From contig NZ_CP011041.1 of assembly GCF_002310835.1 (NCBI RefSeq), positions 180,001 to 212,000 on the forward strand: a stretch of 32,000 nt of DNA, given 5' to 3'. The notes beneath the pieces are model-generated. The model was given only the letters and a program-made list of their open reading frames with translations. It was not told where the DNA came from and did not search any database. The translations under genes and the position numbers were made by a program. The DNA is from Pseudoalteromonas tetraodonis. Lineage in GTDB: Bacteria > Pseudomonadota > Gammaproteobacteria > Enterobacterales > Alteromonadaceae. Shown here one piece after another: positions 27,200 through 30,837 of the stretch; the stretch's first letter is position 1, and every line of letters starts with the position of its first letter.

Positions 27200-27832
27200 A
27201 TGACCGCATTAAACAACCAGAATTTACTGCAACTTCGTTTTATTAACCAAGCCAATATTGATTTGGTTAAGCCTTCTTTTGATAACTTACCTGCAAATCC
27301 TTATGCAGATGGTGCGTTTCGTAAACGCCGTTATTCAGTGGTTAAATTACAAAATGGTGAGCTTAATCTTCAAGCGACCAAAGCGTTTGTGCAAGACGAT
27401 TCAATTAATACCTTTCAAGGTAATGTTGAGCGTACTTACGAAAACTTAGAGCAAAGCTTGCTTGAGTCTGAGGGTATGAAAAGCATTGTTAGCGAATTTG
27501 CAGCGATCACCGGCATTGACGCAGAGCGTGATATTGAAATTCACCAATTTAGAATGCTTGCCATTGATAGCGATACGCCAGCAGCTCCAGAAGGTGTGCA
27601 TCAAGATGGGTTTGACCATGTGTGTGTATGTGGTGTTTCTCATGAAAATTTAGAAGGTGGTGAGCTATTGGTTTATGAAAACCAACAAGCTGAACCGTGT
27701 TTTAAAATGGAAATAAAAGACGGCATGTTTGCACTAATTAATGACCGTCAGGTATGGCATAACGCCACGCCAATGAACAAAATTGATGCTAACAAACCAG
27801 GTTACCTGGATTGCTTTGTACTAACTGCTTAA
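27200..27832 (+). CDS. 2OG-Fe dioxygenase family protein (PF10014-type, free-amino-acid hydroxylase-like)
   Basis: The facial-triad context is GVHQDGFDH ... VWHNATP. The size (210 aa) and motif layout fit the family that includes L-isoleucine dioxygenase IDO. Confidence 0.7.
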   Translation: MTALNNQNLLQLRFINQANIDLVKPSFDNLPANPYADGAFRKRRYSVVKLQNGELNLQATKAFVQDDSINTFQGNVERTYENLEQSLLESEGMKSIVSEFAAITGIDAERDIEIHQFRMLAIDSDTPAAPEGVHQDGFDHVCVCGVSHENLEGGELLVYENQQAEPCFKMEIKDGMFALINDRQVWHNATPMNKIDANKPGYLDCFVLTA

Positions 27833-27842
27833 GAGAAATAAA

Positions 27843-29075
27843 ATGAATTTAATGCAATTGCGCGCGCAATTTCCTGCTTTAATGCAAACTGTTGATGGCA
27901 AGTCACCGGTGTTTTTAGATGGGCCAGGTGGCTCACAAGTACCTCAGTCGGTACTCAATGCCATGACCGCTTATTTAGGGCATTACAATTCAAACTTGGG
28001 CGGTGCGTTTTTCTCAAGTGACAAAACGGTTGAGCTGATGGCGAATGCGCGTCAAGCGGCGGCTGATTTGTTAAATGCGCCCAGTGCACAAAATATTGTG
28101 TTTGGCCCTAATATGACTAGCCTAACATTTAGCTTTAGCCGAGCAATTTCACGCAATTGGCAAGCAGGTGATGAAATTATAGTGACCAATGCTGATCATT
28201 TTTCAAATGTATCGTCTTGGCAGCAAGCCGCTGAAGATAAAGGCGCAGTGGTTAACACAGCGCTAATTAACGAAGCCGATTGTAGTTTAGATATGGCGCA
28301 TTTTGAAAGCTTATTAAACGCTAACACTAAATTGGTTGCGGTTACGTATGCATCAAATACCACTGGCTCTATTAACGATATTAAACGTATTATAGAGCTT
28401 GCTCATAATGTGGGTGCGTTGGTGTATGTTGATGCGGTGCATTATGCGCCACATGAACTGATTGATGTACAAGCGTTAGATTGCGACTTTTTAGCTTGTT
28501 CTGCATATAAGTTTTTTGGCCCGCACTTAGGCATGGTTTATGGTAAAACTGAGCACTTAGAAGGGTTTACACCTTATAAAGTAGAGCCAGCAAAAGATGT
28601 TGCACCAGGTCGCTGGGAAACCGGCACACAAAGTTTTGAGGCACTTGCAGGCTTTATTGCGGCGGTTGATTACATAGCGGCGATTAGCGAACTTGATGAC
28701 AGTCACTCACGCCGAGAAAAATTACGTGTTGCGTTTGCTAAAACAAAACAACATGAAATGGCATTGAGTGAATACTTTTTAACGCGTCTAGTTAACTACC
28801 CAAAAATTAAGTTGTTTGGTATAGACGATTTAGAGCGTTTGAGTGAGCGTACCCCTACGTTCGCACTGACCTTTGAAGGGTTAGAGCCTCGCCAAGTGTC
28901 TGAATTTTTGGGTAAACAACATGTATGTGTATGGGATGGTAATTTTTACGCCCAAGGTTTATGCAAACAACTGGGTGTGCTTGATAAGGGCGGCGTAGTA
29001 CGCATTGGTTGTATGCACTACAACACCATTGAAGAGATGGACACTTTGTTTGACTTGTTTGATGAGCTGATTTGA
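27843..29075 (+). CDS. Class-V PLP-dependent aminotransferase / cysteine-desulfurase-like protein
   Basis: It has fold-type I class V motifs (ASNTTG, VYVDAVHYAP) and a PLP-lysine context SAYKFFGPH. It starts 10 nt after the dioxygenase stop and has its own AAGAG SD. Confidence 0.85.
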   Translation: MNLMQLRAQFPALMQTVDGKSPVFLDGPGGSQVPQSVLNAMTAYLGHYNSNLGGAFFSSDKTVELMANARQAAADLLNAPSAQNIVFGPNMTSLTFSFSRAISRNWQAGDEIIVTNADHFSNVSSWQQAAEDKGAVVNTALINEADCSLDMAHFESLLNANTKLVAVTYASNTTGSINDIKRIIELAHNVGALVYVDAVHYAPHELIDVQALDCDFLACSAYKFFGPHLGMVYGKTEHLEGFTPYKVEPAKDVAPGRWETGTQSFEALAGFIAAVDYIAAISELDDSHSRREKLRVAFAKTKQHEMALSEYFLTRLVNYPKIKLFGIDDLERLSERTPTFALTFEGLEPRQVSEFLGKQHVCVWDGNFYAQGLCKQLGVLDKGGVVRIGCMHYNTIEEMDTLFDLFDELI

Positions 29076-29077
29076 AG

Positions 29078-29147
29078 CTGTCAGCTATAAGCCGTCAGCT
29101 TTCAGTTTAATGCAAATACTTGACAGTAGTCAGCAGTTAGTTAATTT
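29078..29147. repeat. Ten degenerate heptads (consensus CTGTCAG), in phase with the perfect array
   Basis: Parsed in 7s from 29078, the units read CTGTCAG CTATAAG CCGTCAG CTTTCAG TTTAATG CAAATAC TTGACAG TAGTCAG CAGTTAG TTAATTT. Seven of 10 units match the consensus at 5 or more of 7 positions. The frame runs straight into the array at 29148. Confidence 0.75.
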
Positions 29148-29700
29148 CTGACCGCTGACCGCTGACCGCTGACCGCTGACCGCTGACCGCTGACCGCTGA
29201 CCGCTGACCGCTGACCGCTGACCGCTGACCGCTGACCGCTGACCGCTGACCGCTGACCGCTGACCGCTGACCGCTGACCGCTGACCGCTGACCGCTGACC
29301 GCTGACCGCTGACCGCTGACCGCTGACCGCTGACCGCTGACCGCTGACCGCTGACCGCTGACCGCTGACCGCTGACCGCTGACCGCTGACCGCTGACCGC
29401 TGACCGCTGACCGCTGACCGCTGACCGCTGACCGCTGACCGCTGACCGCTGACCGCTGACCGCTGACCGCTGACCGCTGACCGCTGACCGCTGACCGCTG
29501 ACCGCTGACCGCTGACCGCTGACCGCTGACCGCTGACCGCTGACCGCTGACCGCTGACCGCTGACCGCTGACCGCTGACCGCTGACCGCTGACCGCTGAC
29601 CGCTGACCGCTGACCGCTGACCGCTGACCGCTGACCGCTGACCGCTGACCGCTGACCGCTGACCGCTGACCGCTGACCGCTGACCGCTGACCGCTGACCG
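29148..29700. repeat. Perfect heptanucleotide tandem repeat (CTGACCG) x 79
   Basis: Read directly from the sequence. The 553 bp equals exactly 79 units with no substitution or indel, plus a partial CT at 29701-29702. It fills the gap between convergent genes. Confidence 0.99.
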
Positions 29701-29702
29701 CT

Positions 29703-30407
29703 TTAGCTTTGTGGCGTTCCATAAATTTGCTCTGCTCGATTAAACAAAACCCATGAGGTTAAAATATACTTATCGTTTGATACTGGCTTATTGCCTCTAT
29801 GTGTATGCGTAAAGTAGCCTGGGGCAATTACCATGCTGCCTTTTTTAGGGGCTATTTTACGATTTTGATAATAAAACTCGGTTTCTCCGCCTTCTTCAAC
29901 ATCATTTAAATAAAACATAAATAACAACACCCGATGCAGTGCTTCATTATGCTGTAGCTGCGGATACACCTCACTGTGCCAATACGGATAACCGCCTTTA
30001 TTTACTTCGTATTTTTGCGCTTGAATATTACCGAGTCTAAAAATTTGCTGTACCAATAAGGGGAGTTGTGGTTTACCTACCTCGTCATAGTTGGCGTGAG
30101 TTAAATCAACCGGTTGTCCTGTTTTTGGGTGATATACCTTTAAACCAAATGCCCCAATCATCATAAAAATATGTTCTTCAATGTAGTTGAAAACATACTG
30201 TGCAGTGGTTTGTTGAATATGTTTTAATTGTTCTGCGTATTCAGGATGATTGTTTAAGTATAAGTCGTGGCTATCTTTTTTATTAAGGTCAACACCGCCC
30301 GATGTCATCCCTTGTTTAATATGCGGGCTTTGAGAAAAGGTAGTGATAAAGTTATCGCAAAATTCATTACTGAGCGCGTTGTCATACACGCGGATAAAGT
30401 CCGTCAT
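29703..30407 (-). CDS. 2OG-Fe(II) oxygenase superfamily protein (prolyl-hydroxylase-like fold)
   Basis: It has an HxE/D...H pattern (YWHSE ... THTHRG), and GGETEF and ILTSW are typical of small bacterial/phage 2OG-Fe(II) oxygenases. Its TAA stop is separated from the heptamer array by 2 nt. Confidence 0.72.
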   Translation of the reverse strand: MTDFIRVYDNALSNEFCDNFITTFSQSPHIKQGMTSGGVDLNKKDSHDLYLNNHPEYAEQLKHIQQTTAQYVFNYIEEHIFMMIGAFGLKVYHPKTGQPVDLTHANYDEVGKPQLPLLVQQIFRLGNIQAQKYEVNKGGYPYWHSEVYPQLQHNEALHRVLLFMFYLNDVEEGGETEFYYQNRKIAPKKGSMVIAPGYFTHTHRGNKPVSNDKYILTSWVLFNRAEQIYGTPQS

Positions 30408-30438
30408 GAGTTACCTGTTTAATTATTATTGGATTATT

Positions 30439-30837
30439 ATGTTTACTGAAAAAGTGATGCCGCGTTTTAGCGAAACGGATGCACTCGGACACATCAACAA
30501 TACCGTACTCCCCGTATGGTTTGAAGCGGCCCGAGTACCTATTTTTAAATTTTTTACGCCTGATCTAAATCCACACAACTGGAAGTTAATCATTGCTAAA
30601 GTAGAAGTGTCGTTTGTTGGCGAACTATTTTATGCCCATGAGGTGACAATTAACACCAGCATAGAGCAGATTGGCAATAGTTCATTTGTGATCCGCCAAG
30701 AAGCATGGCAGCAAGATAAGTGCTGCGCCATTGGTAAAACGGTGATGGTACGTTATGACTTTGCTAGTAAAACAAAGCAACTACTTTCGACTGATGAAAA
30801 AGCCGCATTAACACAGCACCTTGTAGCAGTTAGTTAA
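30439..30837 (+). CDS. Hotdog-fold acyl-CoA thioesterase (4HBT/YbgC-like)
   Basis: RFSETDALGHINNTV is the typical 4HBT N-terminal catalytic Asp context. The ATG at 30439 gives a 132-aa product. The track start at 30343 would overlap the divergent oxygenase gene. Confidence 0.8.
   Translation: MFTEKVMPRFSETDALGHINNTVLPVWFEAARVPIFKFFTPDLNPHNWKLIIAKVEVSFVGELFYAHEVTINTSIEQIGNSSFVIRQEAWQQDKCCAIGKTVMVRYDFASKTKQLLSTDEKAALTQHLVAVS

Follow-up and report, generated by a model that had tools for sequence, protein, structure and literature searches.

A conserved gene pair for a PF10014 dioxygenase and a cysteine-less pyridoxal-phosphate enzyme in Pseudoalteromonas tetraodonis, compared with the fungal Fgm1/Fgm3 system

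In the fungal Fgm1/Fgm3 system, the hydroxylase Fgm1 supplies 4(R)-hydroxy-L-arginine, and Fgm3 breaks this compound at its Cβ-Cγ bond, releasing L-alanine together with a guanidino aldehyde (PMC10967133; bioRxiv 10.1101/2023.03.21.533663). Members of the dioxygenase family PF10014 oxidize free L-amino acids, including isoleucine (IDO), leucine, and threonine at C4 and lysine at C4 (GlbB) (PMC3684760, PMC9951290); HilB is another member with reported activity on free amino acids (PMC3684760), and TqaL has been placed in the same family (PMC12816470). Here, we describe a gene pair that brings these two kinds of chemistry to mind. It lies in a 32,000-nucleotide (nt) stretch of the Pseudoalteromonas tetraodonis genome (assembly GCF_002310835.1, contig NZ_CP011041.1, positions 180,001 to 212,000 of the forward strand; the whole stretch is called the window below) and consists of a gene for a PF10014 dioxygenase (DOX) followed by a gene for a pyridoxal 5'-phosphate (PLP)-dependent enzyme of the TIGR01976 family. 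It is strongly supported that DOX and the PLP enzyme constitute a self-contained two-gene operon, and the PLP enzyme, although annotated as "cysteine desulfurase-like," has Tyr where the desulfurase SufS has its catalytic Cys.

DOX (27200..27832, + strand) encodes a 210-amino-acid (aa) Fe(II)/2-oxoglutarate (2OG) dioxygenase that covers positions 1 to 192 of the 192 positions of the PF10014 profile (2OG-Fe_Oxy_2, formerly "BsmA") and scores 191.9 bits against a cut-off of 23.1 (E = 1.2e-56). The facial triad is formed by H134, D136, and H187; the H134-Q-D136-G motif and H187 are invariant among 40 homologs with 40 to 92% identity, as are 42 other columns of that alignment. This agrees with a sequence-only reading of the window, which had placed the 210-aa protein in the 2OG-Fe dioxygenase family by its HQDG...H context. 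The AlphaFold2 (AF2) model of DOX has a predicted local distance difference test (pLDDT) score of 86, and its best Foldseek matches are BelL, HrmJ, 3pl0, IDO, and TqaL, with template modeling (TM) scores of 0.65 to 0.82; alignment and model together place an HxD...H triad on a double-stranded β-helix fold. Some PF10014 members, BelL and HrmJ among them, catalyze cyclopropanation or aziridination and not hydroxylation. DOX shares 24 to 27% identity, and no more, with the solved or characterized members of its family, and it fails the HilB equivalog model NF042428 (3(1)-hydroxy-L-isoleucine 4-dioxygenase) with 33.6 bits against a cut-off of 350.

The PLP enzyme (27843..29075, +; 410 aa) has the class-V fold and matches PF00266 (E = 2.1e-69) and, over residues 5 to 404, TIGR01976 (am_tr_V_VC1184; 510.4 bits against a cut-off of 352.35), a "hypothetical equivalog" that is named after Vibrio cholerae VC1184 and described as a "cysteine desulfurase-like protein." It does not reach the SufS model TIGR01979 (240.6 bits, cut-off 475.1) or the CsdA model (169.1 bits, cut-off 493.6) and lies far below the cut-offs for SufS, CsdA, IscS, and NifS. 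In the HMMER alignment, the loop AGHHCAQPL of Bacillus subtilis SufS pairs with W-D-G-N-F-Y369-A-Q-G-L of the PLP enzyme, which puts Y369 at the SufS Cys site. In a family alignment of the 150 best representatives at 50% identity, this column holds Tyr in 109 of the 134 non-gap cases and Cys in only 3 of the 134. In 144 of the 150, a Tyr precedes the PLP lysine (Y222 here, in the motif S220-A-Y-K223), at a position held by His in SufS. The stacking His (H119), the Asp at the pyridine nitrogen (D197), the PLP lysine (K223), and the Arg for the α-carboxylate (R387) are conserved in the family; such residues define the fold, not desulfurase activity. We considered C362 as an alternative catalytic Cys and rejected it, as it is conserved in close relatives only and not family-wide, and no other conserved Cys was found in the alignment of the 150 representatives. 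The AF2 model (pLDDT 87) matches SufS-type folds with TM scores of 0.87 to 0.90 in Foldseek, a comparison in which the fold does not distinguish a lyase from a desulfurase.

Judged by its active-site residues, the PLP enzyme is no cysteine desulfurase. Because the PLP-binding residues are kept and the Cys is replaced by Tyr, it should bind an α-amino acid on PLP and would be unable to form a persulfide in the manner of SufS. The sequence-only reading had pointed to the SAYK lysine, had found no clear catalytic-Cys loop by eye, and had set its proposal against an ordinary cysteine desulfurase; K223, Y369, and the scores below the desulfurase cut-offs bear it out on all three counts.

Among solved structures, Fgm3 of Fusarium graminearum matches the sequence of the PLP enzyme best (PDB 9x4u series, E = 2.2e-54), with SufS a little behind. 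When Fgm3 residues 9 to 391 were rebuilt from the PDB alignment for model scoring, the rebuilt sequence obtained 323.8 bits on TIGR01976 versus 183.7 bits on the SufS model. Fgm3 and the PLP enzyme, but not SufS, have the YK, GPH, APH, and HYNT motifs and a deletion of ~11 residues. By these measures, and with its Cys-less signature, the PLP enzyme is nearer to Fgm3 and TIGR01976 than to the desulfurases.

The two genes are separated by an intercistronic spacer of 10 nt (GAGAAATAAA; 27833..27842, +), with the DOX stop codon ending at 27832 and the PLP ATG at 27843, and a Shine-Dalgarno-like AAGAG overlaps the DOX stop codon. As read from the letters, the spacer and the AAGAG support an operon and possible translational coupling. 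The spacing is tight elsewhere as well: the DOX and PLP genes overlap by 4 nt (ATGA) in Serratia and in locus L090, and 2 nt lie between them in both Salinivibrio and the cyanobacterium Gloeothece verrucosa PCC 7822.

To survey such loci, one genome per GTDB species was scanned with a DOX profile, and the 80 best loci were retained. A PLP homolog lies directly downstream of DOX on the same strand in 72 of these 80 loci, which span Pseudoalteromonas, Vibrio, Aliivibrio, Photobacterium, and Serratia. The pair is found in all 43 Pseudoalteromonas loci, in the Vibrio, Aliivibrio, and Serratia loci, and in most Photobacterium loci. The adjacent PLP gene is missing from the eight remaining loci, namely, those of Enterovibrio, Grimontia, and Veronia and one from Photobacterium. 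Between Pseudoalteromonas and Vibrio, the PLP enzyme (~61% identity) is better conserved than DOX (~43%). We also examined 13 genomic places that encode distant members of the PLP family (36 to 47% identity to the PLP enzyme), and in 3 of these (L083, L089 from Cysteiniphilum, and L090) a PF10014 gene stands directly upstream, with identities of 30 to 35% for DOX and 40 to 45% for the PLP enzyme. Annotated records add the pair in Salinivibrio and in G. verrucosa PCC 7822. With 72 of 80 loci and recurrence across phyla, the adjacency of DOX and the PLP gene is far beyond chance. The sequence-only reading had asked whether the dioxygenase/PLP pair is conserved across genera and had named random adjacency as the opposite outcome; the survey excludes the latter, the 10-nt gap is exactly as it had stated, and the pair is probably cotranslated.

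In the eight exceptional loci (L048, L049, L054, L063, L066, L067, L071, and L075), DOX is followed not by the PLP gene but by a gene for an outer-membrane-like protein of ~460 aa, and upstream of DOX lie genes for a class-II glutamine-amidotransferase-like protein, an NnrS-like protein, and ABC permeases. More distant PF10014 genes (27 to 29% identity) have other partners, namely, MOSC, thioredoxin, or methyltransferase genes or an IclR gene with a major facilitator superfamily (MFS) gene. Therefore, the pairing with the PLP gene marks a subfamily and is not a trait of all PF10014 members. The distant PF10014 genes on a Novosphingobium plasmid (L097, 1974-4208) and on a Streptomyces plasmid (L098, 1701-3639) both adjoin MOSC-domain genes, a different recurring partnership within the family, and thioredoxin and TlpA genes also lie beside the Novosphingobium gene.

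All-against-all clustering of open reading frames (ORFs) in the 80 loci revealed no third gene that is conserved with the pair across genera. The neighbors are lineage-specific and include acnB, trxB-cydDC, LysR, MFS, BCCT, and ntrBC genes, and the clustering brought out no conserved biosynthetic companion of the pair, be it a gene for a nonribosomal peptide synthetase (NRPS), a ligase, or another such enzyme. Two kinds of neighbor were seen more than once. A trxB-like thioredoxin-reductase gene adjoins the pair in Vibrio (L047, L069, and L073) and in the distant locus L083 (6379-7341), and an aconitase gene stands beside it in Pseudoalteromonas (acnB, 24401-26998 in the window) and in Salinivibrio (acnA, L095), where acnA lies on one side of the pair and fumC on the other (61-2799 and 7086-8471). 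The thioredoxin-reductase and aconitase adjacencies may be backbone synteny or may hint at a redox or tricarboxylic acid cycle link.

The TIGR01976 family as a whole is repeatedly associated, through fused domains or neighboring genes, with oxygenases from at least four different superfamilies, and when the P450 Fgm1 is counted in, its oxygenase partners come from several that are unrelated to each other. A phmmer search of 1.84 billion representatives returned 1,407 representatives at 50% identity with E < 1e-30, a count that includes true desulfurases. Among the 150 representatives, 10 exceed 520 aa, and 8 of these 10 carry an N-terminal PhyH-type (PF05721) Fe/2OG dioxygenase fused to the TIGR01976 domain. 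These fusion proteins are metagenomic (P0436, P0463, P0465, P0475, P0488, P0492, P0493, and P0498; 553 to 969 aa), and P0450 has a sulfatase domain fused in place of PhyH. One PhyH-fusion gene (L081, 475-2799) sits on a contig that has a eukaryotic look: its GC content is 62%, its Ldh gene is split, and G8/Calx-beta genes are present. Among the distant contexts, one TIGR01976 gene is followed by a Rieske oxygenase gene. In Pseudomonas sp. Irchel 3A7 (L088, 1-5260), co-oriented genes encode a JmjC-type oxygenase, an EamA exporter, a small ORF product, a CysS-like tRNA-synthetase paralog, and the TIGR01976 enzyme, and this cluster looks like a separate, uncharacterized small-molecule pathway. 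Genetic coupling of the PLP enzyme to an oxygenase is thus seen both in the PF10014 adjacency at 72 of 80 loci and in the PhyH fusions of its family.

From the family assignments, the missing catalytic Cys, the far-reaching conservation of the two genes as a pair, and the recurrent oxygenase fusions and neighbors of the PLP family, all of which are observed, we infer the order of the steps, the oxidized position, the retro-aldol chemistry, and the type of substrate as follows. DOX, with Fe(II), 2-oxoglutarate, and O2, would oxidize an unactivated side-chain carbon of a free α-amino acid or close analog, most likely C4 (the γ carbon), to yield a γ-hydroxy amino acid. The PLP enzyme would then bind this γ-hydroxy product as an external aldimine and cleave its Cβ-Cγ bond by a retro-aldol reaction, as Fgm3 does, and the products would be L-alanine and an aldehyde or ketone carrying the distal side chain. 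In our view, it is quite probable that DOX and the PLP enzyme work one after the other on a single amino-acid-like substrate and have no part in Fe-S cluster assembly. The specific chemistry, hydroxylation of a free amino acid, probably at C4, followed by PLP-dependent retro-aldol cleavage to L-alanine and an aldehyde or ketone, is drawn by analogy with characterized enzymes, and we see the chances for and against it as evenly balanced. The general idea that an oxygenase product is passed to the PLP enzyme had already been put forward in the sequence-only reading, and the gene fusions and the relationship to Fgm3 lend it support.

Several observations weigh against this scheme. The PLP enzyme is 35% identical to Fgm3, barely above its 33% identity to SufS, and Fgm3 itself falls slightly under the TIGR01976 cut-off. 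Y225 of Fgm3, the proposed retro-aldol base, cannot be mapped unambiguously; the Tyr in front of the Lys (Y222) is conserved, but the residue at Lys+2 is Tyr in Fgm3 and Phe225 here. Enterovibrio, Grimontia, and Veronia retain DOX without an adjacent PLP gene, and no aldehyde dehydrogenase or transporter gene is conserved beside the pair. No oxygenase gene lies nearby in 7 of the 13 distant TIGR01976 contexts, and therefore the oxygenase coupling of the family is frequent but not universal. As DOX is at most 27% identical to characterized enzymes and fails the HilB model, both the C4 regiochemistry and the substrate are extrapolations.

Other chemistries may be envisaged for the same two genes. 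The PLP enzyme might build or remodel a noncanonical amino acid, with DOX oxidizing the product or supplying the substrate; candidate reactions include UstD-like decarboxylative aldol addition (aspartate plus an aldehyde), GntC-like cyclization, transamination, and epimerization, and the end product could be a small metabolite related to signaling or adhesion. UstD, a Cys-less enzyme that forms C-C bonds, is a detectable relative of the PLP enzyme (7mkv, E = 2.8e-21), and a retro-aldol reaction is in principle reversible. In the ustiloxin pathway, UstD handles γ-hydroxy amino acids by way of an enamine intermediate. The labels "biofilm formation," "agglutination," "bsmA homolog," and "BsmA domain" hint at an aggregation phenotype, and an MFS exporter gene and a LysR regulator gene flank the pair in Aliivibrio. 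However, UstD is far more distant than Fgm3 (79 versus 188 bits), no gene for a ligase, NRPS, exporter, or regulator accompanies the pair from genus to genus, and the pair sits among the housekeeping genes acnB, trxB, and purMN. The biofilm label, moreover, was not traced back to the DOX and PLP genes, and the bsmA/bsmB quantitative PCR (qPCR) primers mismatch the Serratia loci. Taken together, these points make a biosynthetic role unlikely.

It is likewise improbable, we think, that the pair performs sulfur chemistry, in which DOX would sulfoxidize a sulfur-containing amino acid or hydroxylate it next to sulfur and the Cys-less NifS-like enzyme would act as a C-S β-lyase, like the cystine lyase C-DES or the ergothioneine lyases EgtE/Egt2, to release pyruvate, ammonia, and a sulfenic acid or thiol. 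The fold and the nearest bacterial relatives are those of cysteine-processing enzymes, and some PF10014 enzymes sulfoxidize L-Met in vitro. Several Vibrio loci and L083 have a thioredoxin-reductase gene beside the pair, although this trxB adjacency belongs to a conserved trxB-cydDC backbone that is absent in Pseudoalteromonas, and thioredoxin, TlpA, and MOSC genes accompany more-distant PF10014 genes. In addition, V. cholerae vc1184 was upregulated together with iron-homeostasis genes after exposure to the Pathogen Box compound MMV687807 (PMC8694189). Against these points, Fgm3, the sole characterized near-member, cleaves a C-C and not a C-S bond, no EgtE-type model appears among the 25 best NCBIfam hits, and the 55 PDB sequence hits at E < 1e-10 do not include the structure of C-DES.

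The sequence-only reading had gone further and had drawn two more genes into a candidate amino acid "tailoring module" of four, whose unity it called unproven. These genes lie beyond a heptamer array and encode a prolyl-4-hydroxylase-like 2OG-Fe(II) oxygenase of PF13640 (29703..30407, - strand; 234 aa; Pfam E = 3.2e-11) and, divergently, a 4HBT-type thioesterase of the hotdog fold (30439..30837, +; 132 aa from ATG 30439; 4HBT_2/4HBT Pfam match). A working unit of all four, for example, with double hydroxylation in the manner of HilA/HilB followed by thioester chemistry, would suit their physical closeness in the window, and the PF13640 and PF10014 enzymes of the HilA/HilB tandem cooperate on isoleucine (PMC3684760). 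In the survey, however, the PF13640 gene and the thioesterase gene are never found apart and are confined to 18 of the 43 Pseudoalteromonas loci, with no occurrence in the 37 loci of other genera; they are missing even in the close relative L019 (DOX 84% identical), and neither stands beside the pair in Cysteiniphilum, Salinivibrio, Gloeothece, L083, or L090. The PF13640 gene is not a co-oriented tandem partner but is convergent to the pair, 627 nt away, and both it and the thioesterase gene are split from the pair by the hypervariable repeat. Its product has no NCBIfam hit at E values up to 0.01 and resembles prolyl 4-hydroxylases (best PDB match, Bacillus anthracis prolyl 4-hydroxylase 3itq, E = 6.5e-8). 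A four-gene unit is thus very improbable, and the pair adjoins the PF13640 oxygenase, the thioesterase, and the heptamer array without being related to them. Still less credible is an ordinary cysteine desulfurase for Fe-S or thio-cofactor synthesis with a dioxygenase that happens to be adjacent, which would account for the "cysteine desulfurase(-like)" annotation in all sources, the SufS-like fold, and the Fe-S cluster role assumed for vc1184 (PMC8694189) but not for Tyr in place of the catalytic Cys family-wide with no alternative conserved Cys, scores far below the SufS, CsdA, IscS, and NifS cut-offs, the lack of a SufE, SufU, or CsdE acceptor gene nearby, and an adjacency to DOX that is conserved across phyla.

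As a description of the window, the sequence-only reading was accurate: coordinates and Pfam/NCBIfam searches agree with its four ORFs and their families, motifs, and spacings, including the second 2OG oxygenase and the 4HBT thioesterase with divergent starts ~30 bp apart (31 nt by measurement, between the thioesterase ATG at 30439 and the PF13640 start at 30407). As an interpretation it survives in part, in the two-gene unit, the family assignments, and the nondesulfurase nature of the PLP enzyme; the four-gene module does not stand, given the distribution of the two outer genes, and the word "tailoring," with its implication of a biosynthetic cluster, finds no NRPS, ligase, or biosynthetic neighbor conserved with the pair.

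In the neighboring oxygenase, a His-Ser-Glu (W-H-S-E) aligns to the His-x-Asp of the B. anthracis prolyl 4-hydroxylase and would represent an HxE variant of the motif that binds iron. The thioesterase matches 2oiw (E = 2.9e-35), and a GTG listed at 30343 as its start overlaps the divergent PF13640 gene; ATG 30439 is a plausible start. The heptamer array comprises 79.3 perfect CTGACCG copies (29148..29702) between the convergent PLP and PF13640 genes and abuts the PF13640 stop codon. It is hypervariable at a fixed site, with 7 copies in L001 (11976-12024), 6 in L010 (11950-11991), and at least 17 in L005 (11982-12100), where the contig ends inside the array. A CTTACCG variant occurs in L004, L007, and L012 (~11950-12060), with an assembly gap in L004 and an additional TATAAGC heptamer run in L012, and relatives that lack the array have an ordinary hairpin terminator at that site. 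A 193-aa ORF encoding (SGQRSAV)n (29141-29722, -), which overlaps the 3' end of the PF13640 gene, is a by-product of the repeat and not a gene.

Upstream of the pair, an ompA-like gene precedes acnB (24401-26998), which is followed by a hairpin with a T-run (AAAAAACTCGCTTCGGCGGGTTTTTT; 27013..27040, +) that was read by eye from the sequence and is missing from the output of a consensus terminator scan. The hairpin stands between acnB and the pair, and therefore the pair would start its own transcript. An Rfam search upstream of DOX returned no riboswitch or small RNA above threshold; the sole database match of the hairpin, rsmX, scored 25.6 bits against a threshold of 56 and was dismissed as a chance, subthreshold match. 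A promoter-like site (TTGTCC, 17 nt, GATAAT; 27042..27070, +) lies upstream of DOX and matches the consensus weakly. As a promoter scan of the region gave 8 sites versus 8.1 expected from shuffles, this match is no evidence by itself. Downstream of the thioesterase gene, glpD extends past the end of the window, and a frameshift suspected there was ruled out, as the gene merely runs off the window. One surveyed locus comes from a metagenome-assembled genome of Pseudoalteromonas sp. (L001, isolate M30B23), in which DOX is identical to that of the window and the neighborhood is 98 to 99% identical.

Orthologs of DOX are labeled "biofilm formation protein" or "agglutination protein," and PDB entries of the family are named "bsmA homolog" (3pl0) and "BsmA domain." When two published primer sets for qPCR of Serratia marcescens bsmA/bsmB were compared with three Serratia loci (L070, L072, and L080), no meaningful match emerged even at a tolerance of 4 mismatches. 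We therefore do not equate bsmB with the PLP gene, and the bsmA/bsmB link remains a lead; the name bsmA has also been given to the unrelated Escherichia coli gene yjfO (PMC3684760). No literature on the function of the bacterial DOX-PLP pair was found, the original Serratia bsmA papers not being available for consultation. More speculatively, and with only a slim chance of being right, the pair could be a widespread, unrecognized "oxidize-then-cut" route from a common amino acid to L-alanine and a reactive aldehyde that, itself or as a derivative, acts as a diffusible signal or surface-modifying compound. If true, this would account for the "biofilm formation/agglutination protein" labels long carried by the dioxygenase family and would mean that the "cysteine desulfurase-like" family is misnamed.

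Proteins of TIGR01976 are annotated as "cysteine desulfurase-like" across many genomes and are sometimes assumed to serve Fe-S assembly (PMC8694189), yet the evidence here is that they lack the desulfurase nucleophile. If the proposed cleavage is correct, a compact route in which two enzymes cleave a C-C bond of an amino acid exists in bacteria as far apart as Pseudoalteromonas, Vibrio, and Serratia on one side and cyanobacteria on the other. Such a route would represent a new catabolic or signaling reaction, would correct a widespread annotation, would offer a source of biocatalysts for γ-hydroxy amino acids and aldehydes, and would open the "BsmA" biofilm label, so far poorly understood, to biochemical tests.

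Overall, the pair combines features of several known systems. With SufS and CsdA, the PLP enzyme has in common the fold (TM 0.87 to 0.90), the PLP-binding His, Asp, and Lys, and the carboxylate Arg; it differs in the change of the catalytic Cys to Tyr, in the change of His to Tyr before the PLP lysine, in the deletion of ~11 residues of the SufS hairpin region, in scores below every desulfurase cut-off, and in having no sulfur-acceptor partner gene. UstD is, like the PLP enzyme, a Cys-less "cysteine desulfurase-like" PLP enzyme and a detectable homolog, but it is fungal, works in the synthetic direction, uses aspartate, and is distant (79 bits). IDO, HilB, GlbB, TqaL, BelL/HrmJ, and the Mpe_A2762 protein (3pl0) have the Pfam family, triad, and fold in common with DOX, and the characterized dioxygenases among them act on free L-amino acids, typically at C4. 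These enzymes are at most 27% identical to DOX, which lies below the HilB equivalog cut-off, and unlike DOX they have no reported TIGR01976 partner in the papers cited here. The Fgm1/Fgm3 system, which belongs to the fusaoctaxin B pathway and provides its guanidinoacetyl unit, comes closest, as Fgm3 also lacks the SufS Cys and uses the product of a partner oxygenase. It differs in that Fgm3 is fungal and has Phe, not Tyr, at the former Cys position, that its partner Fgm1 is a cytochrome P450 and not a PF10014 dioxygenase, and that Fgm1/Fgm3 is embedded in an NRPS cluster, whereas the DOX-PLP pair stands without one. The DOX-PLP pair may therefore be viewed as the logic of an oxygenase plus an Fgm3-type lyase, realized with a different oxygenase family and in a bacterial operon.

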